From Candidatus Thorarchaeota archaeon (GTDB lineage: Archaea > Asgardarchaeota > Thorarchaeia > Thorarchaeales > Thorarchaeaceae): a DNA stretch of 11,941 nt. The position numbers and the translations under genes were made by a program. The stretch is taken from assembly GCA_016840855.1 (NCBI GenBank), contig JAEORO010000231.1, forward strand, positions 1-11,941. Reading direction: 5' to 3'. The notes beneath the pieces were generated by a model, which saw nothing but the letters and a program-made list of their open reading frames with translations, was not told the origin of the DNA and searched no databases. How positions within the stretch are numbered: the stretch's first letter is position 1; every line of letters starts with the position of its first letter. Of this stretch, positions 911-11,841 are shown one piece after another.

Positions 911-933
911 TAGTGGACCACATTTGATTCAAA
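911..933 (-). repeat. Degenerate tRNA-Ala 3'-end copy (putative att site, type B-like)
   Basis: TAGTGGACCACATTTGATTCAAA, 16/23 to type B consensus TGGTGGACCGGGCGTGATTCGAA. Intergenic, with a purine-rich left flank like the other copies. Confidence 0.6.
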
Positions 934-951
934 TTATCTGTCATGAAAAAT

Positions 952-1647
952 CTAATTCTGGGTTCGCGATGCACTGAGCCTGTTGTGCATCTCTACTATT
1001 TCTCTCTTCATCTCATCTGAGAATTCGACAATCAACTTGTCTTTCAGTTCCTTAGTAAGTTCCTCTCCTGCAGCGATTTTCTCTCCCGCAAGTTTTACAG
1101 CATTAAGAAAATCTGAGAGCTGCTTCTTTCCCCTTTCATAGAACAATAACTGCGCAGCTGGAAGAAAGATAGGTAGTGCCATTGGATAGAGGGCTCTCAC
1201 TATATCGAAGTTGCTCGTGTCAGGGAATCCACATGTCGCAGCCAAAACCATGCGTGGAAATCTACGTATTCTACCTGGGTGCCGTGTTTCTCCATCATGA
1301 TTCACCATCTCAGGAAGTGTGAATACAAAGGTCCGTTCCAACAACTTCTGTAAATAGTGAGTCACGTTGCGACCATAGATTGGTGTGCCAAATAGCATCA
1401 CATCTGCATCTGCAATAGCAGGCAGGATTTTTTCCATATCGTCCTTTTGTACACACTTGCCAGGCGTGACCCACCAGCAGTTGAAACATCCACGGCATCC
1501 ATTAATATCTAGGTCGACGATGTGATATTTTTCAACATCTGCCCCCGACAATCTTGCTCCCTCAATGAATGTTTCTAACAGCACATCTGTCGTGCCATTG
1601 GATTTTCTAGGACTGGCATTGAACACTAGAAGCTTCATGTACTGCAC
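952..1647 (-). CDS. Iron-sulfur flavoprotein / NAD(P)H-dependent FMN reductase (flavodoxin-like fold)
   Basis: N-terminal FNASPRKSNGTT FMN-binding loop, CRGCFNCW-x5-C cysteine motif followed by DDM, and ADVMLFGTPIY. True start may be the ATG at 1638. Confidence 0.9.
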   Translation of the reverse strand: MQYMKLLVFNASPRKSNGTTDVLLETFIEGARLSGADVEKYHIVDLDINGCRGCFNCWWVTPGKCVQKDDMEKILPAIADADVMLFGTPIYGRNVTHYLQKLLERTFVFTLPEMVNHDGETRHPGRIRRFPRMVLAATCGFPDTSNFDIVRALYPMALPIFLPAAQLLFYERGKKQLSDFLNAVKLAGEKIAAGEELTKELKDKLIVEFSDEMKREIVEMHNRLSASRTQN

Positions 1648-1722
1648 CAGCTGTTCTCTTCCTTATAGGTTACAGGTCTAAGCAATACTTTTGTCTTGAA
1701 AGATTTGCCAAAGATAACCAAG

Positions 1723-1745
1723 TGGCGGACCGGGCATGATTCGAG
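1723..1745 (-). repeat. tRNA-Ala 3'-end copy (putative att site, type B)
   Basis: TGGCGGACCGGGCATGATTCGAG, 20/23 to type B consensus; intergenic. Confidence 0.85.
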
Positions 1746-1849
1746 TTCGCCACGATTTCTCTCTTAGTGATTTAAGAAACGATTGAACGGATGATTATTA
1801 ACCAACAGCGGATATTGTAGTTCCGATTGGCTAGGGAAAAGGGGCTGTC

Positions 1850-3307
1850 TTGATGAAACGACGCGAACTGCTTGTAGTTACATCTTTTGTACTCGCGCTT
1901 TTGCTAGCTTCGCTCTTGTATCTTGCATCACAAGGATTTTGGAATAGTACAACTGATTCTTCGCCTGATATAATCATACATAATGGTCAAATCCTGACTA
2001 TGGAGCAATCTCCGGCGCAAGTTGAGGCAATAGCCCTCCAAGGTGAGTATATTGTCGCCGTAGGCAGCGAGAGTGATATCCTCACGATGGCAAGCGCAAA
2101 CACCCAGTTCATTGACCTAGAAGGAAGGACACTCCTACCGGGTTTCAATGATGCTCATTCTCATCATATAGGTGACCGGAGTTATGTGAACCAATCATCG
2201 TCAGAGGAAGTGATTGAATCACTACTTAGTTTAGGATGGACTAGCATCTCAGAACTCTTTGTGAATCAAGAACGTTTGGATGGGCTCATATCTTTGGATC
2301 AACAGGACAACCTTCGCATTCGTGTAAATGCCTATCTTCCACTAAGCTGGCAGTTTGAGAGGTTCGGTGATTGGTATCTGACCTATCAACCCGGCCAGGA
2401 ATACAGTTCAAAATTAAGGATAGGAGGTGTGAAGATCTTTATGGACAGTTGGTATACCAATCCACTTCATTACTTTTCTCAAGCCGAACTGAACTCATTA
2501 GTGCAACAAGCTCATGACGATGGATTTCAGATTGCTATTCACAGTGTAGTAGATAACTCTACAGACATTGTTCTAAACGCTTTAGAATCAGCCTTGGATG
2601 GACAATCAAATCAACAATACCGACATCGAATTGAGCACCTTGTCCTACTCAGAAACGACCAGATACAGAGAATTGCTGATCTAGGAATTTTAGCCTCTTT
2701 CCAACTCACTTGGATTAATTCAGACTGGATGGAAGCAGTATCATGGCCGGTCTTGCAGAATTACTCACACCTTGCAGGTAGATGGAGAGATATTCTTGAT
2801 GCAGGGATCCCCTCACTTGGGAGTACCGACTATCCCTGGATTTTTGGTACAGAGCGATCAGTCATGTCTGTGATTTCGAGTGCCGTAACTAGGGTTGGTG
2901 AACTCGGACTCACGCCGTCAGATTGGATGTTAAACCAGACTATTAATGTAGAACAAGCTCTACGACTACTAACAATCGACGCAGCTTATGGGACATTCCA
3001 GGAGAACGTGAAGGGGAGCATCAAGGTGGGCAAATTTGCAGACCTAGTAATTCTTTCAGATAATCCTTTAACAGTTCCAGAAAATACTCTTGCTGAAATT
3101 GAAGTACTAATGACAATGGTGGGTGGGATTGTGGAATACACTGCTCCCGGACATCAGTTTCTATCGGCAGGTTGCGTGGGCGCCATCAGTCAAACGACGG
3201 AAAAAACAAACCCACTGATCAAGATGGAGATGATAGACACTCCGAATAAGAATGAGGAGTGGCGGACCGGGCTTGATGCGATTACCTTCATTTGGAGTTA
3301 TTCCTAA
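1850..3307 (+). CDS. Metal-dependent amidohydrolase (YtcJ-like, Amidohydro_3) with N-terminal signal peptide or membrane anchor
   Basis: Motifs IDLEGRTLLPGFNDAHSH, QIAIHSVVD, RHRIEH, GSTDYP and KGSIKVGKFADLVIL; basic then hydrophobic N-terminus. Confidence 0.9.
   Translation: MMKRRELLVVTSFVLALLLASLLYLASQGFWNSTTDSSPDIIIHNGQILTMEQSPAQVEAIALQGEYIVAVGSESDILTMASANTQFIDLEGRTLLPGFNDAHSHHIGDRSYVNQSSSEEVIESLLSLGWTSISELFVNQERLDGLISLDQQDNLRIRVNAYLPLSWQFERFGDWYLTYQPGQEYSSKLRIGGVKIFMDSWYTNPLHYFSQAELNSLVQQAHDDGFQIAIHSVVDNSTDIVLNALESALDGQSNQQYRHRIEHLVLLRNDQIQRIADLGILASFQLTWINSDWMEAVSWPVLQNYSHLAGRWRDILDAGIPSLGSTDYPWIFGTERSVMSVISSAVTRVGELGLTPSDWMLNQTINVEQALRLLTIDAAYGTFQENVKGSIKVGKFADLVILSDNPLTVPENTLAEIEVLMTMVGGIVEYTAPGHQFLSAGCVGAISQTTEKTNPLIKMEMIDTPNKNEEWRTGLDAITFIWSYS
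3260..3282 (-). repeat. tRNA-Ala 3'-end copy (putative att site, type B) inside the 3' tail of the amidohydrolase ORF
   Basis: TGGCGGACCGGGCTTGATGCGAT, 19/23 to type B consensus; ends about 20 nt before the stop codon of the convergent gene. Confidence 0.8.
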
Positions 3308-4428
3308 TCACTTTCAAACTGAACGCATCTTACTCCTCCCTTAAGTCCAGCTGCAAAACAACGGTTACAGGATATGCATCTAGCAATCTCTTGCGTCCCT
3401 ACTTTTGCTTCTTCAGTCCACCGACGCAGAAGTGCTGGTTCACTGATTATAGGACGACTAAGCTGAATTACGTCGAAAGCAGCAGCTAAATCTCCATTCC
3501 CCGTTAGTAATTTGATAACAGTCTTTGGAGACCGGATACCACCCACCAAACCGAATAAGAGACCACTATCATGTACAGTGGAACGGATAACCATTGCATC
3601 ACCCAAAAAATATGCATCTTCCAAATCTTTTGGTTTCTGAGTTGGGTTTGGACCACTGAATATCACACAATATGCGCCTGCTTCAGCCAGTTTCTTTGTT
3701 AGCTCGCCTACTTCTTCGGGTTTGACGGTGTCAGAGCTTGAATCTACCTTTACTTGGATTGGAATATCAACTGTGTTTTTGATAGCTCGCACAGCATCCA
3801 CCATTGCTTTGCTGCGTCCTTCAATTGATGTTCCTGTATACGGGTCATTCTCTGGGCGATGATTATACGATGGATCAAAGAATTGCCAAAGACCATAATG
3901 ATGAGCTCCGTGAAGCTCAATCACATCAAACCCTGCACTTTCTGCCCGTTTCGCCGCATTTGCATAAGCCTGAGTGACCTCTTCGACGTGGTCTACTGTC
4001 ATCGCTTTTACCTGAACACCTTCTCCCTTAAGACCAGAAACTTCCATCTCACTGGGACCAAATATATCGTTGCCAGAATATTTGGGCAAACTCTTACACC
4101 CACAATGCACCAATTGAGCCGCTGCTAAACCCCCTGATGAATGAATTATTCCTGCTAAGCGTTTTAGACCCTCAACATCTGTGGGCTTTGAATTCGAGAT
4201 CATCCGCCGAACTGACTGTCCCTCTTCCATCACATATTGAAAACCAGTCACCACGATACCCGCTCTGATTTTACTATATGTTTCGAAGATGGTGTTACTG
4301 CAAGTTCCATCTTCTTCTGCCTGCCCCATCCAAGTAGCAGCCCGCATTATTCGGTTGGAGGCTTTCACTCCATTTGGAAGTTCAAATTCCTGAAGCACTG
4401 TACTCTCCCAGGTTTTCTGGTCTACCAT
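3304..4428 (-). CDS. NADH:flavin oxidoreductase (Old Yellow Enzyme family)
   Basis: Motifs NRIMRAAT, AQLVHCG and AGFDVIELHGAHHYGLWQF, plus a C-terminal CISCNRC-x11-C motif. Confidence 0.92.
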   Translation of the reverse strand: MVDQKTWESTVLQEFELPNGVKASNRIMRAATWMGQAEEDGTCSNTIFETYSKIRAGIVVTGFQYVMEEGQSVRRMISNSKPTDVEGLKRLAGIIHSSGGLAAAQLVHCGCKSLPKYSGNDIFGPSEMEVSGLKGEGVQVKAMTVDHVEEVTQAYANAAKRAESAGFDVIELHGAHHYGLWQFFDPSYNHRPENDPYTGTSIEGRSKAMVDAVRAIKNTVDIPIQVKVDSSSDTVKPEEVGELTKKLAEAGAYCVIFSGPNPTQKPKDLEDAYFLGDAMVIRSTVHDSGLLFGLVGGIRSPKTVIKLLTGNGDLAAAFDVIQLSRPIISEPALLRRWTEEAKVGTQEIARCISCNRCFAAGLKGGVRCVQFESD

Positions 4429-4461
4429 TAAATCAGCTCAAATCCCAAGTCACATGACCCG

Positions 4462-4467
4462 TATATA
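4462..4467 (-). promoter_or_regulatory. Putative archaeal TATA box for the OYE gene
   Basis: TATATA about 34 nt upstream of the ATG at 4428, inside the unit boundary. Confidence 0.5.
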
Positions 4468-4494
4468 GGCTTGATGTGATAGACTCGGAAAAAA

Positions 4495-4517
4495 GTTTGG
4501 ACCGAGTGGGGTTCGAA
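4495..4517 (-). repeat. Degenerate tRNA-Ala 3'-end copy (putative att site, type A-like)
   Basis: GTTTGGACCGAGTGGGGTTCGAA, 17/23 to 11765-11787; intergenic, A-rich left flank. Confidence 0.75.
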
Positions 4518-4550
4518 CACCAACATTCTCTCGTCAGAATGGATTACTTC

Positions 4551-5060
4551 TTACAGACTATATTTCTCATGGATTCCTTCGATTTCTACTACAATTTCTT
4601 CATAGTGTGCAATCAGATCAGGTTTCCCAGATTGAATTGCGTGAGATTTTGCCTGATCGAGCAATGCAAGAAGAGCTGTTGTTTTTTCAACAATCTCAGG
4701 ACCTAGCTTTTGCTGTTTCTTGGGTTTTTCGTTATATTTGGCGATTGTCTTCGCGATACTCTGTCTTTCTTTTGAAATCTTCTTGTCCATGTCCAATGTT
4801 ATCATCTTGTCCAGTTTTTCAAGAGAGTCTTCTTCAGCATCAGCAACTGGAGTTGGTTCCTTTTGTTGAGTTGAGAGTCCAAGAACTCGTTTCAGATCAT
4901 CTCGGAAGAAACTGATAAGGAACCCTATGAAGATGACAACAACTCCCGCAAGAAAGCCCTCTAAGCTGGATAACAGATAAGCGATGATACTCACAATGAC
5001 GAGAATTACAATGAGTACTATTAGTCCTTTCCAAGAGAAACTGTTAGATTCGCTATTCAA
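4551..5060 (-). CDS. Hypothetical membrane protein: 2 N-terminal TM helices and a charged helical C-terminal domain
   Basis: 169-aa ORF (TTG start) filling the interval between two repeats; hydrophobicity pattern. Confidence 0.75.
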   Translation of the reverse strand: MNSESNSFSWKGLIVLIVILVIVSIIAYLLSSLEGFLAGVVVIFIGFLISFFRDDLKRVLGLSTQQKEPTPVADAEEDSLEKLDKMITLDMDKKISKERQSIAKTIAKYNEKPKKQQKLGPEIVEKTTALLALLDQAKSHAIQSGKPDLIAHYEEIVVEIEGIHEKYSL

Positions 5061-5198
5061 TGCATTCTCACAAAGTGCACTAGGTGTGGTTTGATTTAAC
5101 TATGTTTCTAGGATTCTGAAGGCTGATTTGAACCTTTCAAGAACTAAAGGGATGACAATCGTTTCTCAGTTAGTTGTTGTGATATTTTGAACAAAGAG

Positions 5199-5221
5199 TG
5201 GTGGATTGGGTGAGATTGGAT
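5199..5221 (-). repeat. Degenerate tRNA-Ala 3'-end copy (putative att site, type A)
   Basis: TGGTGGATTGGGTGAGATTGGAT, 18/23 to 11765-11787; ends 6 nt from the stop at 5227. Confidence 0.8.
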
Positions 5222-5226
5222 TGTTC

Positions 5227-5988
5227 TCATGAGCATCTTCTACGATGATAGATTACCGCTACTAATAGAAAAACACCTGCTACACTGAAAGTTATGAGAG
5301 TAATCGCCAATCCCAAATTGATATTGTTCCAACTCTGAATCAGTGGAAGAATGTTTGTATCATTCAGTGTTTCTAACACTGATACTTCTGCATTGAGAAC
5401 ACTACGATTGGTTTCAATCATTAAGATAATCCCTGTCTGTTGATCATAATACCGATTCATCTGATTCCCCGTCGAGAATACATTTTCAGTCATCCAACAT
5501 ATTCGCGTGGTGGGCAAGCAATCAAACTTTAGCGGTCCAACAGATACAGGATATTCATTTGTTTCATACATCGTGTTAATCGCCGTACTCTCGTTTGTTT
5601 TAGTTGAAATCCAGAATGCTATCTTCTTACTCACTGGATATCCCTCAATCTCAGAGCCATTTGGGTGAAATGCACTCAGAATAAATAATGAATCTCTATC
5701 GACTATCAATCTCCCACCACCGGGAATAATGGTAAACGATTCAGTAGTGGAATTGAAAATCAGACCATGGGAGCGAATTTCAATCTCGATAGTACTTGGT
5801 TCCACTGATGTTATTTTCCAATACAACTCATAGGTATCACCATTTGAGAACTCCTGTTTGTACTGAGCATATGAACCAATATCCAAGAACTCAGGAAGAC
5901 CTGCTTGATTCTGTGATAGAATTGGATGTGGCTGCGTCAGAATGATAGAACAGATGAGAATGAGTAAGAGAAAACGAATCGACATCAC
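5227..5988 (-). CDS. Hypothetical secreted/cell-surface protein with C-terminal membrane anchor
   Basis: N-terminal signal peptide, several N-x-S/T sequons, C-terminal TM helix followed by HRRR. GGAGGTG lies next to the start (ATG at 5985 or GTG at 5988). Confidence 0.8.
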   Translation of the reverse strand: MMSIRFLLLILICSIILTQPHPILSQNQAGLPEFLDIGSYAQYKQEFSNGDTYELYWKITSVEPSTIEIEIRSHGLIFNSTTESFTIIPGGGRLIVDRDSLFILSAFHPNGSEIEGYPVSKKIAFWISTKTNESTAINTMYETNEYPVSVGPLKFDCLPTTRICWMTENVFSTGNQMNRYYDQQTGIILMIETNRSVLNAEVSVLETLNDTNILPLIQSWNNINLGLAITLITFSVAGVFLLVAVIYHRRRCS

Positions 5989-6044
5989 ACCTCCATGTTA
6001 TATTTACATGGAATAGGAAAAGAGTTTCGAACAAAGAAATGAAA

Positions 6045-6067
6045 TGGTGGACTAGGTGGGATTTGAA
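6045..6067 (-). repeat. tRNA-Ala 3'-end copy (putative att site, type A)
   Basis: TGGTGGACTAGGTGGGATTTGAA, 21/23 to 11765-11787. Confidence 0.9.
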
Positions 6068-6075
6068 AACCTGTG

Positions 6076-6089
6076 TATAAAGATTATAA
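6076..6089 (+). promoter_or_regulatory. Putative TATA box(es) for 6130..6669
   Basis: TATAAA (6076-6081) and TTATAA (6084-6089) just right of the repeat; GAGG Shine-Dalgarno-like motif at about 6113. Confidence 0.45.
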
Positions 6090-6129
6090 CCATTCAATAC
6101 ATCTTTGGATTTGAGGTTTCGTTAATTAG

Positions 6130-6669
6130 ATGGGTTCCGAACCTTTGTTTGAAGGAACTTTGAGAGGGTCTACTATCTCAAAAGCGATTCTAGGTCTTTC
6201 CTTTGTTCTGCCATATCTCATTGACTGGTTGAATAGGAGTAGTTATCCTCATCTAATGATTTATGCACCAACTTGGCTACTGCTTGAAAGCGAATGGGAA
6301 TCTTTCATAGGACCCACTCCCATGGCTTTACTCATGTTTGCCTATTGGCTACCATATACCTATGTGGGATTTCAATCATACAGGTTCTCGAAAGGAAAGT
6401 ACTCAAGCGTCAATCGCTATGTTGTTGGAGTCGTTTTTGTTACCTCTCTAGCAATCTTATTGACAATTCCCTTGATGATATCTCCATCAGTTTGGGAAGA
6501 TGGAAGAGTTTTCCATTCCACTGTGATTCCACTACCGCTGGTTTCGATTTTGGCTTTGCTATTAATACCAGTTCTGCGCCCAGTTTTGCTACTATCGCCA
6601 TGGGAAGACGTTAAAGAGAATGTTTTCTCGCGCAATGATTCAATGAATTCAGAACGAAGTATTGATTGA
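6130..6669 (+). CDS. Hypothetical polytopic membrane protein (about 4 TM helices)
   Basis: 179-aa ORF with ATG start and several hydrophobic segments; stop 10 nt before the next repeat. Confidence 0.75.
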   Translation: MGSEPLFEGTLRGSTISKAILGLSFVLPYLIDWLNRSSYPHLMIYAPTWLLLESEWESFIGPTPMALLMFAYWLPYTYVGFQSYRFSKGKYSSVNRYVVGVVFVTSLAILLTIPLMISPSVWEDGRVFHSTVIPLPLVSILALLLIPVLRPVLLLSPWEDVKENVFSRNDSMNSERSID

Positions 6670-6679
6670 AACGAATAAA

Positions 6680-6702
6680 TGGTGGACCGGGCGTGACTCG
6701 AA
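6680..6702 (-). repeat. tRNA-Ala 3'-end copy (putative att site, type B)
   Basis: TGGTGGACCGGGCGTGACTCGAA, 22/23 to type B consensus and 19/23 to the resident tRNA. Confidence 0.9.
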
Positions 6703-6715
6703 GGATGTGATTAGC

Positions 6716-7153
6716 CTAATGATCGTCTGATGTAATGGTTTCCCAAAGTTTCGACAAATACATTGAGGTTAGCCAGAAACCCACGAGAGAAAAGATCAAG
6801 CCAAGTGGAATTGCAAAAGGTCGTAGGTCTGATCCTACGAATCCAATTACAAATGCATAGATAGATGGTATAGCAGCAAAAGTGTACATGAGAACAGCTG
6901 GACCCATGATGTTATTCGACTCGACTCTTTTTCTAAAATGACGATATGACAGGTAGATGAGTAGAATCTCGATGGGCATCAAAATAATCATCAACCATGA
7001 AACAGCATCAGGTAGATTATTACCAGCAGGAAGTTCGGATTCTGGTATTAGGAGTACAATGAAAATCATTACAATGGAGTAGAATAAAATCAGAATTCCT
7101 AGTAGTCTGGCTTTTCTGAGTGATGACATACTGTTGGGATGTTCAGAATCCAT
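6716..7153 (-). CDS. Hypothetical membrane protein (4 TM helices)
   Basis: 145-aa ORF with four hydrophobic segments; BRE/TATA-like GAAAACTTAAA on the minus strand at 7189-7199. Confidence 0.78.
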   Translation of the reverse strand: MDSEHPNSMSSLRKARLLGILILFYSIVMIFIVLLIPESELPAGNNLPDAVSWLMIILMPIEILLIYLSYRHFRKRVESNNIMGPAVLMYTFAAIPSIYAFVIGFVGSDLRPFAIPLGLIFSLVGFWLTSMYLSKLWETITSDDH

Positions 7154-7219
7154 TATACATCCACCAATCTCAGTAAGCAGGGCTTCAGTTTAAGTTTTCA
7201 GTATCTAATAGCGAAGTAG

Positions 7220-7242
7220 TGGTGGACCGGGTGGGATTTGAT
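7220..7242 (-). repeat. tRNA-Ala 3'-end copy (putative att site, type A)
   Basis: TGGTGGACCGGGTGGGATTTGAT, 22/23 to 11765-11787. Confidence 0.93.
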
Positions 7243-7248
7243 ATAATA

Positions 7249-7287
7249 GGAAAAGAAGGGGGGGCTCGATTCAAGTTAAGCCCCTTT
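7249..7287 (-). terminator. Possible terminator for the 7760-to-7309 operon
   Basis: GGGGCT (7261-7266) and AGCCCC (7279-7284) form an inverted repeat, followed on the minus strand by the pyrimidine tract CTTCTTTTCC. Confidence 0.4.
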
Positions 7288-7308
7288 GCGAATCGACATT
7301 TTATAAAA

Positions 7309-7497
7309 TCAAGCAACATTGCTCTTACCGCGCGAACACATTATAGCACCTATGGTCACGAAGATTAAAAGTCCGAGTAGAATCACTAGAAACGGGTCAA
7401 TCACACCTAAGCCAAAGTAGTTACACAATATTCCACCAATGACCACGAAGATTGCTATCATAAGCACTATAATTGCTGCTTTATCTCTTAACTGCAT
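7309..7497 (-). CDS. Small membrane protein (2 TM helices)
   Basis: 62-aa ORF with a strong Shine-Dalgarno GGAGGTGA (minus strand, 7504-7511); overlaps the end of the upstream ORF, suggesting translational coupling. Confidence 0.75.
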   Translation of the reverse strand: MQLRDKAAIIVLMIAIFVVIGGILCNYFGLGVIDPFLVILLGLLIFVTIGAIMCSRGKSNVA

Positions 7498-7760
7498 TTA
7501 GAATCACCTCCTGCACATTTGTTTTTCGTATCTATAACTGAAATCTCACTTTTCCTCAAATGCAACCTCAGAAAACCATAACATCCCTTTAGCTCGAGTA
7601 TTTCAGGTTCTATGAATAAGGCGTGTTGCAATTTTCCAAGGGTTCCTTCTATTAGGATGGCATCATTCACGTCTGTTGAGAGAACTGAGAGTCGGTGCCT
7701 GTTACAAGTGAGTTCGATTGAGAAGTCACACTCACCGTTTTCATTTTCTTGGTTGTTCAT
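7488..7760 (-). CDS. Small hypothetical protein, probably beta-rich
   Basis: 90-aa ORF with ATG start, divergent from the regulator. The FSIEL...ILIEGTLG...ILELKG..G.LRL pattern resembles archaeal hypothetical proteins (from memory, not searched). Confidence 0.7.
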   Translation of the reverse strand: MNNQENENGECDFSIELTCNRHRLSVLSTDVNDAILIEGTLGKLQHALFIEPEILELKGCYGFLRLHLRKSEISVIDTKNKCAGGDSKCS

Positions 7761-7809
7761 CTCTTGTTCCTCGAAACAATAGGTGCTAGATATTTTTGAT
7801 AAGCTTTAA

Positions 7810-8625
7810 TTGACAAGTTTGCGAAAGATTTTGGATAGGTGCGAAATTATTACTACGCCAAACAATGAAGATGAAGAAGAGATCTCGAAGGTTCTCTTTG
7901 AACTTGCAAGTAACCGAAGAGCAAGTATTCTCTTTGAGGTGGAAAAGAAGAGTCTCAAGATGCAACAAATAGCTAAATCTTTAGACATGAATGTCACTGA
8001 AACCTTCAGGCATCTGCAGAGGCTCAGTAATGCAAAACTTGTTGAGAAACAAGTTGACGGCACCTATGCAACAACTTCCTTGGGCACTCTGACGATTGGT
8101 CTTCTCTCAAGTCTGAATTTTGTTTTGAAACATGGAAACTTCTTCTTGGGCCACGATGTTTCTTGTCTTCCATATGAGTTTGTTAACAGACTTGGCGAGT
8201 TGGAAGATGCAGAGTTTTGTGGAGATACAGTGACCACCTTAAATCGGGTCAGAGAGATTGTTTGTGAGGCAAATGAGTACATTTGGACTATGGCCGAGCA
8301 AGTTGATTCTACTAATGTTAATACTGTGAACGAGCAGGTGGCGAAAGGGCTTGATTTCCGTTTCATTATGCAGGAAGAACTTGCAAGAACTATCAAAATC
8401 ACACCTGAGTTTGAGCACCTGAAACAAAGGAAATCTCTCGGTCGTGTGTGTCTCACTCTCCTAGTCACTGATAAGGAGGCGTCCATTAGTTTACGCAGAC
8501 ATAGCGGAGAAACGGATTACATCGGTTTTATCGGAAAAAATGAAAGATTTCGTAAATGGACCCGAGACCTATTCAATTACTACTGGGAAAGAGCTGAACC
8601 ATGGTATCGAGGCATGCAGAAATAA
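7810..8625 (+). CDS. Archaeal transcriptional regulator: ArsR-like winged HTH plus DUF1724/FilR1-like C-terminal domain
   Basis: LFELASNRRASIL...MQQIAKSLDMNVTETFRHLQRLSNAKLVEKQVDGTYATTSLG winged HTH, HDVSCLPYEFVNRLGEL linker, and C-terminal FRKWTRDLFNYYWERA. Start uncertain. Confidence 0.85.
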   Translation: MTSLRKILDRCEIITTPNNEDEEEISKVLFELASNRRASILFEVEKKSLKMQQIAKSLDMNVTETFRHLQRLSNAKLVEKQVDGTYATTSLGTLTIGLLSSLNFVLKHGNFFLGHDVSCLPYEFVNRLGELEDAEFCGDTVTTLNRVREIVCEANEYIWTMAEQVDSTNVNTVNEQVAKGLDFRFIMQEELARTIKITPEFEHLKQRKSLGRVCLTLLVTDKEASISLRRHSGETDYIGFIGKNERFRKWTRDLFNYYWERAEPWYRGMQK

Positions 8626-8682
8626 TAGCTGCCATTTAATTCAGCGATAACTGCATTATCTCACAAATCAGAAAGAATTGGA

Positions 8683-8705
8683 TGGTGGACCGGGTGGGAT
8701 TTGAA
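8683..8705 (-). repeat. tRNA-Ala 3'-end copy (putative att site, type A, perfect)
   Basis: 23/23 identical to 11765-11787. The left flank also contains TCAGAAAGAA, as does the tRNA trailer. Confidence 0.95.
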
Positions 8706-8725
8706 GTGGGAATACGTCCGATCTA

Positions 8726-8735
8726 TTTTTTTTTT
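8726..8735 (+). terminator. Oligo-T tract, possible archaeal terminator
   Basis: Run of 10 T about 100 nt downstream of the regulator stop codon. Confidence 0.35.
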
Positions 8736-8816
8736 GCGTAAAATTGTGGGCCAAGCAAGATTTGATATTGCAAGAGTATGATTAAGTAACTAGTCCTTGT
8801 TTCGGATGTACGAAAT

Positions 8817-9128
8817 TTGAACAGTGAAGAAGAGGATATCCAAATCGTATTCAATCCTGAAGCTGCAAAATCACTTGGCCTCAAGATTATTGTAATGTTG
8901 GCAGTTTTATTTCTCCCAATTCTTCTCATCTATTGGTTTCAAGAAATTCTGCGACCTTTGTATGGCGATCCTACTCCTCTCTCACCAGTCTATCTAAGCT
9001 TGTTTGCCCTCTTCGTAGGATGTTGGGTGTTTGGATTTGGAATCTTTTTACCATGGGCCGGTAGACGTATCGATGCGTTCATAGAAAGCAAGACTCATTA
9101 CAATAATGATTCAGAATTAGATAACTAA
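8817..9128 (+). CDS. Hypothetical membrane protein (2 TM helices)
   Basis: 103-aa ORF (TTG start) occupying the interval between two repeats; two hydrophobic segments. Confidence 0.7.
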   Translation: MNSEEEDIQIVFNPEAAKSLGLKIIVMLAVLFLPILLIYWFQEILRPLYGDPTPLSPVYLSLFALFVGCWVFGFGIFLPWAGRRIDAFIESKTHYNNDSELDN

Positions 9129-9154
9129 GAGAAGCTGTGTGAGTGAGAGAAAAG

Positions 9155-9177
9155 TGGTGGACCGGGCGTGATTCGAT
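9155..9177 (-). repeat. tRNA-Ala 3'-end copy (putative att site, type B)
   Basis: TGGTGGACCGGGCGTGATTCGAT, 22/23 to type B consensus and 19/23 to the resident tRNA; followed by TATA-like TTTAAG at 9181-9186. Confidence 0.92.
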
Positions 9178-9229
9178 TTGTTTAAGTCTTGGCAACTGAC
9201 ATCTCTCTCGTTGTGGAGTTAGGAAGATA

Positions 9230-9907
9230 ATGAAGACATACATCCTTCTGCCAAGAATGAAACGAGGTATGCTTCCTGAAGAGTTTCAAGATGATGATGT
9301 TAGGTCCGCGGAGTTTCTTTTGGAGTATTTTATCGAGCATTTCACACAACCAGGTGATACTGTCTTCGATCCATTTGCTGGATTTGGTACAACACTCCTT
9401 GTTGCTGAAAGAATGAAACGAATTCCATTCGGCATTGAAGCCGATGAACGACGATATGGGTATACTCGTTCAAAGCTGACAATGAAGGATAACATCATCC
9501 TTGGGGACTCTCGTAAACTGGATACATTTCCCCTACCAAATATAGACTTTGTATTCACCTCTCCCATCTTCATGGGATGTGATGAAACCAAAAACCCTCT
9601 TTCTGGATTCAAGGAGTACGGCACCTATCAGGTATACCTTGACCAGATTCAGGATATATTTCGAAAGTTGGATGCGTTTCTAAACCCAGCAGCTAGGGTG
9701 GTTGTTGAGGTCTACAACCTAGCCCCAAGAGATGGCCGACCGATGACCCTCCTGGCTTGGGATATGACTTATGCGATATCTAAAGTTCTCAGATTCGAGA
9801 AAGAGATTATTGCATGTTGGCAAGGCGTGGATGATGAAAACACCGGTGAAACCCCAATGGGTGTTGGGTATGACCATCACTACTGTCTTGTTTTTGTAAA
9901 AGATTGA
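9230..9907 (+). CDS. SAM-dependent nucleic-acid amino-methyltransferase-like protein (N6/N4 DNA methylase or Trm11-like)
   Basis: FTQPGDTVFDPFAGFGTTL SAM-binding motif I, GDSR, and IDFVFTSPIF at the position of the catalytic SPPY motif. Confidence 0.85.
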   Translation: MKTYILLPRMKRGMLPEEFQDDDVRSAEFLLEYFIEHFTQPGDTVFDPFAGFGTTLLVAERMKRIPFGIEADERRYGYTRSKLTMKDNIILGDSRKLDTFPLPNIDFVFTSPIFMGCDETKNPLSGFKEYGTYQVYLDQIQDIFRKLDAFLNPAARVVVEVYNLAPRDGRPMTLLAWDMTYAISKVLRFEKEIIACWQGVDDENTGETPMGVGYDHHYCLVFVKD

Positions 9908-9911
9908 GAAG

Positions 9912-9934
9912 TGGTGGACCGACCGCGATTCGAA
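9912..9934 (-). repeat. tRNA-Ala 3'-end copy (variant of type B)
   Basis: TGGTGGACCGACCGCGATTCGAA, 20/23 to type B consensus; 4 nt after the methyltransferase stop. Confidence 0.85.
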
Positions 9935-9959
9935 CTCGTACCTTGTGAAAACGAGTTTC

Positions 9960-9985
9960 ACGGAGTCACGCGACCGCCTCCACTT
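9960..9985 (+). repeat. Inverted tRNA-3'-end-like copy
   Basis: Plus strand GAGTCACGC-GACCGCC-T-CCA-CTT. The reverse complement matches the 6680 copy at 14/23, including an exact GCGTGACTC and correctly spaced CCA. Confidence 0.5.
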
Positions 9986-10047
9986 TGGATTTGTGCCAGT
10001 GTTTAGCTTTTGGCAAAGACCTGTTTATCAAAATCATCAATAGTCAA

Positions 10048-10863
10048 TCAATGTTTTCGTGTCAGAATCCCGGTATCAAAATGAAGCATCTGATGTCGGA
10101 CTCTTCTTCTAAGTTTAACACCAGACTTAGAATTCTCAAATATACTTTCACCTGCTAGTATCAAATCGTTGACTAAGTTCTGAGTTTCTATATCTGGACA
10201 ACGTTTAAGCCAATGAGTTAGATTCTCGAGTTCTTTTCGAATAAGTTTCATAACTGTCCTAGTGGGCTTACCATTATCAATAAGATCAACTCTCATCATT
10301 TCCTGACCCAGATAATGATATAATACCTTCAGAGAAATCAATAGAATTCTCCGACATGTGACGAAATCACCTCTTGCATTCCCTGGTCCTCTAAGGGCCA
10401 ATCTTTCTGCTCTACCAGTATAGTACCACTCTATCGGATCTTCATTATGCCCAATCTTCTCAATTACTATTTGACAGAGTTCTATGGGTGTATAGTCTTT
10501 CCTTGATAGGTACATCGTTGCAGATGGCAAACCAGGGATGTCTGTTTTGTCGAATCTAATTGGGAGAATCCCTCCATGCAATACTTTGACAGTATCCGAG
10601 AGTGTAGATCTTTTCTCAATTGTTGGATAGAATTTTTCTGCATAGTGCTTAGAGATGAACATGACACAGTATCTGCAACCATTTTCAAAAACATGGTGAA
10701 GAAACTCCACAAGATTTTCTCCCCACATCTTCGTCGTTTCAAATTCATCGAAAAAAACTTTGACTCCACTATTTCTCAAACAAATAGCGACGTCTCGCAC
10801 ATATTCTCTCTCTTCTCCAGCAAAAGATAGTGCAACATCATATTCTCGTTCTTTATCCTCCAC
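10048..10863 (-). CDS. TIR domain-containing protein (TIR_2-like N-terminus, unknown C-terminal domain)
   Basis: YDVALSFAGEEREYV...LRNSGVKVFFDEF...CVMFISKHYAEKFYPTIE, with Glu at the usual catalytic position, and ILPIRFD. GTG start with Shine-Dalgarno AGGTGA. Confidence 0.9.
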   Translation of the reverse strand: MEDKEREYDVALSFAGEEREYVRDVAICLRNSGVKVFFDEFETTKMWGENLVEFLHHVFENGCRYCVMFISKHYAEKFYPTIEKRSTLSDTVKVLHGGILPIRFDKTDIPGLPSATMYLSRKDYTPIELCQIVIEKIGHNEDPIEWYYTGRAERLALRGPGNARGDFVTCRRILLISLKVLYHYLGQEMMRVDLIDNGKPTRTVMKLIRKELENLTHWLKRCPDIETQNLVNDLILAGESIFENSKSGVKLRRRVRHQMLHFDTGILTRKH

Positions 10864-10878
10864 TCAAATCACCTATTG

Positions 10879-11691
10879 TCATTTATTATCATGAATCTCG
10901 TTTGCTGAAACCGTTTCATTCTCTCCTGTATAATTACTGAATGAAGTTGCCACAGAATCAACTACTCTCTTGTCAATTGATACAATTCCAGTTTCCCACG
11001 TGTCATTCTCGGAATTCCTAGTGAAATTCATTGAAGAAACAATAGCCACTTCATTGTCCACGATGACCAATTTCGAGTGAACTCCCCCTGCACCTCCTTT
11101 CCTCCCGGAATAGTACATGTCAACTCCTTCAGCTATTAGAGTCTTGTGAAACTCCCATCTCTCAGGGTCTCTCTTTGGTCGTCTAGTGATTAGGGAAACC
11201 TCGACTTTTCTCTTTGCAGCGCTACGAAGTGCTGTGCCCAATGTAGCTCCATCCACAAATGGATTGACAACCACAATGCTTGCTTTTGCACGATCCATTA
11301 GACGTCGGGTGATATCTGTGAGATTGGGTCCCTCTAAAAAGAAATGATGATTGTCGAGTGATACATTCACCCCAGCTGTACTAATCCACTGCTTAATCCA
11401 GTCGATATGTTCACTGGTCTGTTCTTTCTCAGGTTTGGTTACTTGTTCCACTGGGTTTGACTGATACTGCCTTTTCAATTCGTGGTCGATAATTCGAAAC
11501 CTTTTGATGCCTTCAATCTCCTCATAGGCGATTGTTTCTGAATTTCTTAGCTCTTTGACTGCCTTTAACATCTGGTTCTGAGAGAGTCCGGACTTTTCTC
11601 GAACATCCTTCCAATGGTCTGCAGCATCAAAGATGATAGCCCGGAGTATTTGGCCTTTCCAGGAGTCCCAGTATTTTGGCTTGTCTGACAT
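10879..11691 (-). CDS. Phospholipase D superfamily (HKD) protein, nuclease-like, with N-terminal winged-HTH-like domain
   Basis: Single HSKLVIVD (HxKxxxxD) motif followed by SSMNFT and ETG; AKASIVVVNPF and VEVSLITR; HTH-like N-terminus (WKDVREKSGLSQNQMLKAVKEL). Confidence 0.85.
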   Translation of the reverse strand: MSDKPKYWDSWKGQILRAIIFDAADHWKDVREKSGLSQNQMLKAVKELRNSETIAYEEIEGIKRFRIIDHELKRQYQSNPVEQVTKPEKEQTSEHIDWIKQWISTAGVNVSLDNHHFFLEGPNLTDITRRLMDRAKASIVVVNPFVDGATLGTALRSAAKRKVEVSLITRRPKRDPERWEFHKTLIAEGVDMYYSGRKGGAGGVHSKLVIVDNEVAIVSSMNFTRNSENDTWETGIVSIDKRVVDSVATSFSNYTGENETVSANEIHDNK

Positions 11692-11764
11692 TTTCTAATC
11701 CCCTACGCACGTGAATTGATTGGATTATCTCTGTAAGAACTCCCTCAAATACCTTCAGAAAGAA

Positions 11765-11841
11765 TGGTGGACCGGGTGGGATTTGAACCCACGACCTCCT
11801 CCATGCCAAGGAGGCATTCTACCAGTCTAAACTACCGGCCC
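11765..11841 (-). tRNA. tRNA-Ala(GGC) with encoded CCA
   Basis: Reverse complement GGGCCGGTAGTTTAGACTGGTAGAATGCCTCCTTGGCATGGAGGAGGTCGTGGGTTCAAATCCCACCCGGTCCACCA. Acceptor stem has G3:U70, anticodon arm is CCTCC-TTGGCAT-GGAGG, T-arm is GTGGG-TTCAAAT-CCCAC. Confidence 0.98.

Follow-up and report, generated by a model that had tools for sequence, protein, structure and literature searches.

Archaeal integration at tRNA genes is familiar from the SSV- and pNOB8-type integrases, and the T-loop and the anticodon loop are reportedly the two classic sublocations of tyrosine-integrase crossover. On Acinetobacter plasmids, dif modules are bordered by inverted XerC/XerD sites and depend on the host Xer. 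In Heimdallarchaeum, HeimV1 and the aloposons are integrative elements at tRNA genes, and the part of that report available to us contains no description of single-gene cassette arrays (PMC8813620). Tycheposons, according to the accessible part of their description, are several kb long and carry tyrosine recombinases as well as replication modules (10.1101/2020.12.28.424599).

The locus considered here differs from these systems in that short units, most of them with a single gene, are strung between fragments of one tRNA. The window, 11,941 nucleotides in length, is an entire contig of a Thorarchaeota MAG (G000; 3.36 Mb, 92% complete) and ends only 100 nt upstream of a tRNA-Ala gene, behind which lie 11 copies of the last 22 nt of that tRNA, all on the minus strand, i.e., in tRNA sense. 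Its features are:

911..932, minus strand: repeat copy, degenerate, 4 mismatches
933..1722, minus strand: cassette A, flavodoxin-like FMN reductase (952-1647; Pfam FMN_red, 2e-14)
1723..1744, minus strand: repeat copy
1745..3259, plus strand: cassette B, amidohydrolase (1850-3307; Pfam Amidohydro_3, 9e-47)
3260..3281, minus strand: repeat copy into which the 3' end of ORF 1850-3307 extends
3282..4495, minus strand: cassette C, Old-Yellow-Enzyme-type NADH:flavin oxidoreductase (3304-4428; Pfam Oxidored_FMN, 3e-30)
4496..4517, minus strand: repeat copy, degenerate, 70% in repeat family D2
4518..5198, minus strand: cassette D, 169-aa protein without assigned function (4551-5060)
5199..5220, minus strand: repeat copy, 3 mismatches to the degenerate pattern
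5221..6044, minus strand: cassette E, 253-aa protein without assigned function (5227-5988)
6045..6066, minus strand: repeat copy whose acceptor part has the variant CTAGTCC
6067..6679, plus strand: cassette F, 179-aa protein without assigned function (6130-6669)
6680..6701, minus strand: repeat copy
6702..7219, minus strand: cassette G, 145-aa membrane protein without assigned function (6716-7153), no match in a Pfam scan
7220..7241, minus strand: repeat copy, its 22 nt identical to the tRNA end, one mismatch in the 23-mer
7242..8682, both strands: cassette H, FilR1-like wHTH regulator (7810-8625, plus; Pfam FilR1_middle, 5e-9, and HTH families) and two small minus-strand ORFs (7309-7497, 7488-7760)
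8683..8704, minus strand: repeat copy identical to the tRNA end
8705..9154, strand unassigned: cassette I, one small ORF without assigned function, either 8817-9128 (plus) or 8723-8929 (minus)
8744-8765, within cassette I: extra degenerate copy, 61 nt from 8683
9155..9176, minus strand: repeat copy TCGAATCACGCCCGGTCCACCA
9177..9911, plus strand: cassette J, small DNA methyltransferase (9230-9907; Pfam N6_N4_Mtase, 8e-14)
9912..10005, minus strand: long repeat copy, its last 22 nt at 9912-9933
9934..11764, minus strand: cassette K, PLD-like protein (10879-11691; Pfam PLDc_2, 8e-19) and TIR-domain protein (10048-10863; Pfam TIR_2, 3e-11), a defence-like pair (PADLOC MkoB/DrmC-like, PDC-S66)
11765..11841, minus strand: tRNA-Ala(GGC), anchor of the array, intron-less with encoded CCA, the only gene found by ARAGORN (Rfam tRNA, 65.5 bits)

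The original prediction had placed same-orientation copies of the tRNA-Ala 3' end at the boundaries between units. These were confirmed and all 11 spacings were reproduced exactly; every listed copy was found, with one start corrected from 4495 to 4496 and the degenerate copy at 8744-8765 added. Searching with the 23-mer of the tRNA 3' end at up to 3 mismatches gave 4 matches, against 0.00 expected from 200 shuffles, at 8683 and 11765 (no mismatch), 7220 (1) and 6045 (2). The degenerate pattern TCRARTC-N4-CCGGTCCRCCA fits 1723, 6680, 7220, 8683, 9155 and 11765 without mismatch, 3260 and 9912 with one, 6045 with two, 5199 with three and 911 with four, and the copy at 4496 is weaker; good copies are present in relatives at the junctions homologous to 911 (locus L060; congener G022) and to 4496 (loci L046, L052 and L063). 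The long copy at 9912 is what remains of the 3' half of a tRNA-Ala with introns, including part of the 37/38 intron and a T-arm intron, as seen when it is aligned to the tRNA-Ala genes of G012 and G013, which bear introns as well (BLAST to G012: 76 nt, 79%). With respect to gene content, a proposed minus-strand operon at 7806-8486 is probably spurious and the plus-strand ORF 7810-8625 encodes the FilR1-like regulator. The claim that no unit carries a recombinase was borne out by Pfam scans of the window ORFs, which found neither a tyrosine recombinase nor any other recombinase, nor a primase/helicase replication module.

The repeat unit extends from T-loop position 55/56 to CCA, with about 7 pyrimidines appended, and has a sharp 5' edge: in a profile of 65 sites from 22 loci, selected on the 11-nt core alone, the information content is at most 0.3 bit ahead of the T of TCGAATC and reaches 1-2 bits precisely at that base, and positions +1 to +7 after CCA are 82-95% pyrimidine. 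One fixed 5' edge at all sites is what would be expected of an att identity block. As for a palindrome or a pairing partner, no conserved upstream sequence was seen at the 65 sites and no local inverted repeats at the copies in the window. Across 98 repeat-to-repeat distances from 54 loci, the median is 940 bp and 90% are below 2.5 kb, with the longest ORF occupying a median of 77% of the cassette. Most cassettes have a single gene and a few have two or three, pointing either way (34 in tRNA sense and 19 opposite among 53 Ala-array cassettes), and this mixed orientation suggests that they probably bring their own promoters.

Comparison with relatives, for which BLAST matches of at least 150 nt on 20 contigs from 18 congeneric species were counted, supports the view that the units behave as discrete cassettes that are shuffled between species. 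All but one of the 50 matches were confined to a single cassette, whereas random placement gave 21.2 +/- 3.0 and none of 2000 trials reached 49; in orientation relative to the nearest repeat, 40 were concordant, none was discordant and 10 were untestable. Gene order was not conserved, the relatives showing J-B-A-C, B-G-J-B and C-A-G as opposed to A-B-C...J in G000, with B-C in G004 as the sole retained adjacency. As in integrons, relatives differ in which cassettes they have and in what order, the breakpoints falling at the sites, and the proposal of discrete, exchangeable modules with limits at the repeats stands. By comparison, congeners are collinear with a 12-kb core region of contig C257, where single matches reach 12 kb and identities are 72-88%.

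Homology stops at the repeats in the alignments of cassettes J, E and G. Repeat-to-repeat matches were obtained for J (85-88% in G013, G016, G018 and G019) and E (86% in G005 over 5199-6057), and the matches of B in G013, G010 and G006 stop at 3281. Cassette G is the most widespread in the genus (at least 12 congeners), A is matched over 956-1686 in at least 10 congeners, and C occurs at 19 loci of named Thorarchaeota and related MAGs. Further matches cover 4546-5130 of D (82-86% in G004, G006, G007, G018, G021 and G022), 7320-8622 of H (G007, G017, G019, G012 and G006) and 8755-9174 of I (83% in G009). Some cassettes of relatives are without a recognisable fragment on one or both sides (L044, L061, L062; the distal side of C).

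The sequence identities also argue for exchange. The closest species, G043, has a core identity of 86-88% and has only F (76%) and two short pieces in common with the array, whereas J reaches 86-88% identity in G018, G019 and G013 against 72-79% for the core, and D, A and G are 83-86% identical in G004 against 71-75%; a stronger constraint on the cassette genes could explain part of this excess. At the population level, Logan contigs of run X8 contain a joint 9911->11765 without K beside a contig with K, a weak hint, as each X8 joint is a single contig with sides of 20 and 30 letters, a length for which the tool itself advises caution, and on the tRNA side the 20 letters match copies 7220 and 8683 as well. 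The same run has a joint 5217->9146, likewise from a single contig, and another contig in which J has a different distal neighbour. Excised circles with one repeat, which the original prediction had led one to look for, were not seen, and none of 32 metagenome loci gave a circular contig.

The pattern is not restricted to tRNA-Ala, as there are several arrays per genome, each behind a tRNA and with the fragment of that tRNA. In a second array on contig C209, which lies between a conserved MiaB/oxidoreductase flank and a tRNA, cassette-sized matches stop at Leu-type fragments and fall on different contigs in relatives; none of its 7 genes points in tRNA sense. The fragments begin in the T-loop for Leu, Gln and Glu and in the anticodon loop for Val and Asp; the 9912 copy, with its start within the 37/38 intron, is of the anticodon-loop type. 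These arrays share with tRNA-targeting elements both the identity blocks that begin at the T-loop (65 Ala sites) or the anticodon loop and the same-orientation direct tRNA 3' repeats downstream of an intact tRNA.

The likeness to integrons that had been proposed, and that to CALINs (attC clusters lacking an integrase), holds for the modular, shuffled cassettes: they are short and mostly single-gene, have one site at a fixed end and a constant orientation relative to the sites, differ in order and content between close relatives, include paralogs within one array and carry no mobility gene. It does not extend to the site, which consists of a 22-nt tRNA 3' end and its trailer, direct and without a palindrome, instead of a folded attC, to the anchor, which is a tRNA gene and not attI, to gene orientation, which is mixed here, or to the number of arrays, of which a genome has several, each marked by the fragment of the tRNA to which it belongs; and no IntI or other tyrosine recombinase was found. 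The Xer-dependent dif modules are similarly small, non-autonomous units of one to few genes with short sites and a recombinase encoded elsewhere, but the sites here are direct tRNA fragments and a Xer-type recombinase was undetected in G000. As far as the available part of the tycheposon report goes (10.1101/2020.12.28.424599), those islands also show an intact tRNA followed by same-orientation partial tRNAs, newcomers that displace older DNA, and metabolic and defence cargo that is hypervariable between relatives; the present units, in contrast, have a median of 0.94 kb, lack an integrase and recur as the same modules in shuffled order. Archaeal integrative elements, in the portion of the literature accessible to us, likewise sit next to or in tRNA genes, with identity blocks from the T-loop or anticodon loop, but each of them is an autonomous virus or transposon that spans many kb and encodes an integrase. 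No published description of a system like the present one was obtained from literature searches, subject to the limits of these, in line with what had been supposed.

From our point of view, the array is best read, with a probability of roughly 50%, as a tRNA-anchored series of small non-autonomous cassettes that are exchanged by site-specific recombination supplied in trans. Read in tRNA sense, each cassette opens immediately behind a CCA with a short trailer rich in pyrimidines, and it closes with an att-like copy of the 22 nt at the end of tRNA-Ala. Site-specific recombination between the copies and the tRNA gene could bring about gain, loss and reordering; the cassettes would probably travel as small circles with one copy each, and every insertion would rebuild the tRNA 3' end and a terminator-like trailer while older cassettes are displaced outwards. 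The crossover may lie near the T-stem/acceptor junction, as suggested by the one informative pair (E in G000 and G005), the profile analysis being too noisy for this purpose.

Since a recombinase is absent from the cassettes and was undetected in the assembly, it would have to be supplied in trans, be it from an unbinned episome or virus or by an enzyme family invisible to the searches used. Tyrosine, serine and Y1 recombinases (PF00589, PF00239, PF01797, PF16795) had no match in G000 at its 92% completeness, and across the genus just 9 out of 28 genomes gave a PF00589 match. Eighteen of the 19 integrase loci scanned were free of tRNAs and of 3'-end-like fragments, while at the remaining one, L033, there is one fragment, from a different type of tRNA. 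An HMM trained on 15 of the genus integrases, which recovered two control genes, both from its own training set, detected nothing in 91 loci (739 kb) that came from such arrays or were retrieved via the repeat, and no virus or plasmid with the repeat site was found. Of the proposed capture of minimal cassettes by a recombinase acting in trans, the cassette behaviour of the units has support; the recombinase, and with it the integron analogy, is unproven.

These searches are also what lends weight to the strongest alternative, which we regard as unlikely though worth serious consideration, namely that no dedicated enzyme is involved and repeats of about 29 bp act as portable homology by which the RadA machinery deletes, re-inserts and exchanges cassettes. 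It, too, would predict that orientation is kept and that breakpoints fall in CCCGGTCCACCA, the longest stretch of identity, and exchange seems limited to close relatives with the same repeat. However, it leaves unexplained how each new gene first acquired its repeat, why the T-loop 5' edge is sharp and uniform at 65 sites and why other tRNAs show anticodon-loop edges, which is an integrase pattern. Moreover, 22-29 bp is short for RadA-type recombination.

It is improbable that the array consists of inert scars, i.e., cargo and displaced tRNA ends left by the decay of successive larger integrase-bearing elements, with no movement of single genes today. Junctions 911, 4496 and 8744 are degenerate and K borders on a long 3'-half remnant of the kind that classical integration typically leaves, and the accessible part of the Prochlorococcus tycheposon work shows tandem integration and scattered partial tRNAs (10.1101/2020.12.28.424599). 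However, independent decay would not yield the same single-gene units and limits in different orders in 18 species, and the change from A-B-C to B-A-C requires rearrangement, not loss; in addition, the search of 739 kb of array and repeat loci gave no integrase remnant and the median spacing is just 940 bp.

A very improbable reading is that the copies are functional RNA or transcription elements, such as tRNA-like 3' ends or terminators at gene ends, instead of recombination sites. While each copy is followed by a pyrimidine-rich run resembling a tRNA trailer and most lie 10-45 nt from a stop codon, the genes face both directions (34 and 19 in Ala arrays, 0 of 7 in tRNA sense in C209), the complementary strand for an acceptor/T-arm helix is absent with nothing conserved upstream, the Rfam scan of the window matched no RNA besides the real tRNA, and shuffling at the copies would not be accounted for. 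Finally, a dispersed REP/MITE-like repeat of tRNA origin or an assembly artefact, as the short repeats and the end of the contig 100 nt upstream of the tRNA might suggest, can be dismissed as contradicted by the recurrence of the arrays in independent MAGs, one complete chromosome and contigs of four public runs (four studies), and by a genome scan that answered the question of clustering in favour of the array, with 8 of 50 matches to the core CCGGTCCACCA (at most 1 mismatch) in the 3.36-Mb genome falling within this 11.9-kb contig behind the cognate tRNA and the remainder being tRNA genes or lone chance-like matches without the T-loop part.

The way in which Asgard archaea come by their many accessory and bacterial-type genes is an open issue, with consequences for models of how eukaryotes arose. 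Here, flexible genes (redox enzymes, hydrolases, membrane proteins, a methyltransferase and a TIR/PLD defence-like pair) reside in discrete modules, which species swap at 22-nt sites of defined extent located behind tRNA genes, and the presence of the same modules in other orders in related species suggests integron-like gene swapping. One could tentatively go further and speculate that the Thorarchaeia possess a dedicated platform for cassette capture and shuffling, a functional analogue of the integron with tRNA genes as docking sites and their last 22 nt plus trailer as the recombination site, in which at least one trans-acting recombinase, possibly of an unrecognised family, would move promoter-bearing single-gene cassettes within and between species and provide a main route for accessory genes in this Asgard lineage. 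If a trans-acting enzyme is indeed at work, this would be an archaeal cassette system independent of IntI and attC, and genetic tools, of which this lineage has none, would gain a natural docking site. Under general recombination, too, the arrays mark the locations of gene flow, with exact breakpoints that can be traced in metagenomes.

Every copy of the 3' end of the tRNA-Ala(GGC) gene lies downstream of that gene and in its sense, as was originally predicted, and the eleven spacings quoted at that time are exact. All of the copies listed then also stand, but one further degenerate copy had been missed (8744-8765).

tRNA-Ala(GGC) and copies of its 3' end in the window (23-mer: at most 3 mismatches, 0.00 matches expected; degenerate pattern: at most 3 mismatches unless stated)
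911, minus strand: weak copy, 4 mismatches to the degenerate pattern
1723, minus strand: copy, degenerate pattern
3260, minus strand: copy, degenerate pattern
4496, minus strand: copy weaker than the others
5199, minus strand: copy, degenerate pattern
6045, minus strand: copy, 23-mer
6680, minus strand: copy, degenerate pattern
7220, minus strand: copy, 23-mer
8683, minus strand: copy, 23-mer
8744-8765: further degenerate copy
9155, minus strand: copy, degenerate pattern
9912, minus strand: copy, degenerate pattern
11765-11841, minus strand: tRNA-Ala(GGC) gene (ARAGORN), matching the 23-mer at 11765

At the two weak sites (911 and 4496), relatives carry good copies at the homologous junctions. 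The copy at 9912 is indeed a tRNA-Ala fragment, but a longer one than had been thought, namely the 3' half of an intron-bearing tRNA-Ala, which includes part of the 37/38 intron as well as the T-arm intron (window 9912-10005).

We find support for a cassette array in the structural and in the evolutionary sense. The window, 11,941 bases long, makes up all of contig C201 in a genome of 3.36 Mb (G000; 259 contigs, 42% G+C), and BLAST comparison with 40 relatives, all of the compared genomes being MAGs, returned cassette-size matches with ends at the repeats (for example 5199-6057, 9152-9910, 9156-9934, 1723-3288 and 6669-7221). In 20 contigs from 18 congeners, 49 of the 50 matches with a length of 150 nt or more were confined to one cassette, as compared to 21.2 +/- 3.0 upon random placement, and none of 2000 trials reached 49; match orientation relative to the nearest repeat was concordant in 40 cases, discordant in none and untestable in 10. 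Gene order, which the original prediction had proposed to compare across relatives, is not conserved: the cassettes, A to K from 911 to the tRNA in the window, occur elsewhere as J-B-A-C, B-G-J-B, C-A-G, A-G and others, with breakpoints at the repeats, and the sole adjacency kept is B-C, in genome G004. When the junctions were aligned for J (four species), E (two) and G (four), homology was seen to begin just past the CCA of the proximal copy (for E, within the acceptor part of that copy) and to stop at the CCA of the distal copy, past which the sequence is unrelated. Per-position identity profiles were too noisy to place the crossover, with a global-alignment background of 0.5-0.6 identity. 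A 12-kb core stretch of contig C257, used as control, is collinear in 27 of 27 congeners (single matches of up to 12 kb, 72-88% identity), so that divergence of the sequences does not account for the fragmentation, which belongs to the array itself.

The identity values further suggest that cassettes have been exchanged between species, since cassette identity exceeds that of the core in distant species (J, 86-88% in G018, G019 and G013, core 72-79%; D, A and G, 83-86% in G004, core 71-75%), while the closest species, G043 (core 86-88%), has only cassette F (76%) and two short pieces in common with the window. The high cassette identity could in part reflect a tighter constraint on the genes that the cassettes carry. 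The stretch is present in 20 public runs from six studies of marine sediment, mangrove and soil metagenomes, for which the population data are assembled Logan contigs. One contig of run X8 joins 9911 to 11765, omitting K exactly from repeat to repeat, with a shorter side of 20 letters, 10 of them ambiguous, and a 1903-nt contig of the same run carries K with zero differences; another joint connects 5217 to 9146, and a further contig has J preceded by other sequence. These joints weakly fit cassette-level polymorphism, each being a single contig with short sides, and the 20-letter side next to the tRNA fits the copies at 7220 and 8683 as well. The depth holes in run X5 (5188-6384, 7582-8379 and 9976-11571) prove nothing.

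The anatomy of the site was read from 65 sites at 22 loci (G000 itself, 18 congeners and a single complete chromosome), chosen by an 11-nt core alone, which limits bias. Conservation sets in sharply at T-loop position 55/56, the T of TCGAATC, and continues through to CCA, which is followed by about seven positions with 82-95% pyrimidine, and no conserved sequence was found upstream of the repeat at these sites. Because of this block and its pyrimidine trailer, with nothing conserved upstream, the unit is about 29 bp long, direct and non-palindromic; the four variable bases within the repeat are the 3' strand of the T-stem. Fragments of other tRNAs likewise start at the T-loop (Leu and Gln as well as Glu, like Ala) or at the anticodon loop (Val and Asp), which Williams (2002) is said to have named as the two usual identity-block positions of tyrosine integrases. 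That the edge of the site is sharp and uniform and starts at the T-loop or anticodon loop argues for site-specific recombination as the origin of the array, as far as sequence can tell.

Congeners carry tRNA-Ala genes with two or three introns (D-arm, 37/38, T-arm), of which two are located as follows:

Intron-bearing tRNA-Ala genes of congeners
about 9424-9600, locus L056 (G012:C38): intron-bearing tRNA-Ala
about 6674-6860, locus L045 (G013:C12): intron-bearing tRNA-Ala

The functional tRNA-Ala(GGC) of the window has no intron and a different T-stem and D-loop, and the displaced remnant at 9912 resembles the genes with introns. The arrival of K therefore seems to have brought a replacement of the resident tRNA, or at least of its 3' half. 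The tRNA count is 24 without and 42 with an intron search, consistent with many intron-bearing tRNA genes, and ARAGORN predicts a tRNA-SeC (tca) at 35074-35164 of G000:C72.

As originally stated, none of the window's cassette genes encodes a recombinase. They include an FMN reductase, an amidohydrolase, an OYE flavin oxidoreductase and a small DNA methyltransferase; five cassettes code for small proteins without an assigned function, some of which look membrane-like in sequence, and a wHTH regulator shares its cassette with two small ORFs. The relatives of the OYE gene all come from MAGs that carry the label Thorarchaeota or that of the related Promethearchaeota and Hermodarchaeota, which places the organism in the Thor lineage of the Asgard archaea. 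ORFs formerly read on the minus strand at 7806-8486 are probably spurious, as a FilR1-like regulator is encoded on the plus strand at 7810-8625. The two-gene cassette adjoining the tRNA (10048-11691) pairs a PLD-like (MkoB/DrmC-like) with a TIR (PDC-S66-like) gene; both match defence-system profiles, and the cassette may be a defence system. The amidohydrolase ORF (1850-3307) runs through the repeat at 3260-3281 to a stop 26 nt past it, and its Pfam domain reaches only to about residue 427 of 485, so that the cassette junction may supply its C-terminal tail and stop codon.

Elsewhere in G000, further contigs carry arrays made of other tRNAs' own 3' ends. On contig C209, six Leu-type copies lie between the tRNA and a conserved MiaB-like/oxidoreductase flank, and the units (SSB-like OB-fold, DUF2284, cupin, CxxCxxCC, alpha/beta hydrolase and unknowns) match congeners one by one, on different contigs in relatives, with the match ending at the copies. 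Across 98 spacings in 54 loci, some possibly duplicates, the median is 940 bp and 90% are below 2.5 kb; the longest ORF takes up a median 77% of the cassette, and 34 ORFs run in the tRNA sense versus 19 opposite to it. In C209, the ORFs are opposite in 7 of 7 cases. A complete Thorarchaeota chromosome (G044) carries five copies in 4.1 kb, where the 35 kb examined show neither a 5' part of tRNA-Ala nor its promoter motif, and arrays can therefore sit apart from a recognisable tRNA. Among 151 genomes of the phylum, at least seven pattern matches occur in 9/9 of the genus, 3/18 others of the family and 1/124 of other families, the pattern being tuned to the tRNA-Ala of this lineage, so that low counts elsewhere do not equal absence.

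The SSB-like OB-fold family adjoins tRNA-fragment arrays at G000:C209 3442-3978, C161 8109-8639 and C18 594-1085; every congener has several paralogues, with many matches to C209 3260-4062. Fragments of the 5' side are repeated as well, comprising the conserved tRNA-Ala promoter ACTCCACAATTCTTTTAACC and the first 17-40 nt of the tRNA, with small genes between (G000:C63 3538-3610 and 3967-4025, locus L068; G009:C151; G011:C125; G016:C38; G004:C110 909-981), an arrangement that resembles a mirror image of the 3' arrays, placed 5' of tRNA genes.

The tyrosine recombinase that had been suspected elsewhere in the genome was not detected: in G000 (92% complete), neither tyrosine (PF00589, PF16795) nor serine (PF00239) nor Y1 (PF01797) recombinases were found with searches that do match control genomes. 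In the genus, PF00589 matches occur in 9 of 28 genomes, mostly on short contigs, with none in the other 19, G000 among them; if not due to incompleteness, the archaea of these 19 genomes would be without a XerA-type recombinase. The congener integrases were rejected as the missing enzyme, as 18 of 19 scanned loci have neither a tRNA nor a 3'-end-like fragment and the remaining one (L033) has just one fragment, from a different type of tRNA. A profile HMM trained on 15 of these integrases found nothing in 91 array-derived or repeat-found loci (739 kb) and did find both positive controls, which belong to its training set. A short congener contig holds three tandem tyrosine-recombinase genes (G020:C116 394-2727; L032, L041), which we take to resemble a recombinase-in-trio element. 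Among 365 ORFs within 6 kb of fragments in G000, the only families to recur on at least three contigs were a NosD-like beta-helix, the SSB-like OB-fold and one unannotated family, and the first two, when scanned, are not recombinases. Viral contigs with the site (24 loci) were dismissed: each contains clustered tRNA genes and has the look of a large phage, the site match falls inside a predicted tRNA gene in at least 20, and none resembles G000 by blastn. Excised circles, a further expectation, did not appear as terminal overlaps in 32 assembled metagenome loci holding the site; episomes may be missing from the genomes, since these are MAGs.

That no integrase turned up within the arrays or close to them speaks for non-autonomous cassettes, and from our point of view site-specific recombination supplied in trans has a probability of about 0.5. 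That homologous recombination at the repeats moves the cassettes appears rather unlikely, and inert scars would be a more doubtful explanation still; the little that is left goes to an RNA-level function or an artefact. A retro-element copying its tRNA primer by reverse transcription was rejected, as the 9912 copy retains introns absent from mature tRNA and copies reach 5' of position 58, and a casposon or transposon by the lack of terminal inverted repeats.

Set beside known systems, the array resembles an integron in the broad way it works, and the proposed analogy holds for the cassettes and their shuffled order; however, neither IntI nor attC was found, and genes lie in mixed orientation where integron cassettes are by definition co-oriented and promoterless, so that it stands outside the integron family. 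With tRNA-targeting integrative elements and, in the accessible part of their description, tycheposon-type islands (10.1101/2020.12.28.424599) it has the att logic in common, but neither their integrases nor their size. In the parts accessible to us, work on Asgard mobile elements describes autonomous viruses, plasmids and aloposons, and such arrays appear neither there nor in those parts of PMC8813620, PMC11529989, PMC13247210, PMC9897764 and the tycheposon study. Supplements and most subscription journals aside, full-text searches of the literature brought up no account of them either, in agreement with the earlier statement that no system of this sort was known. The chance is substantial that the array represents a distinct gene-capture system.
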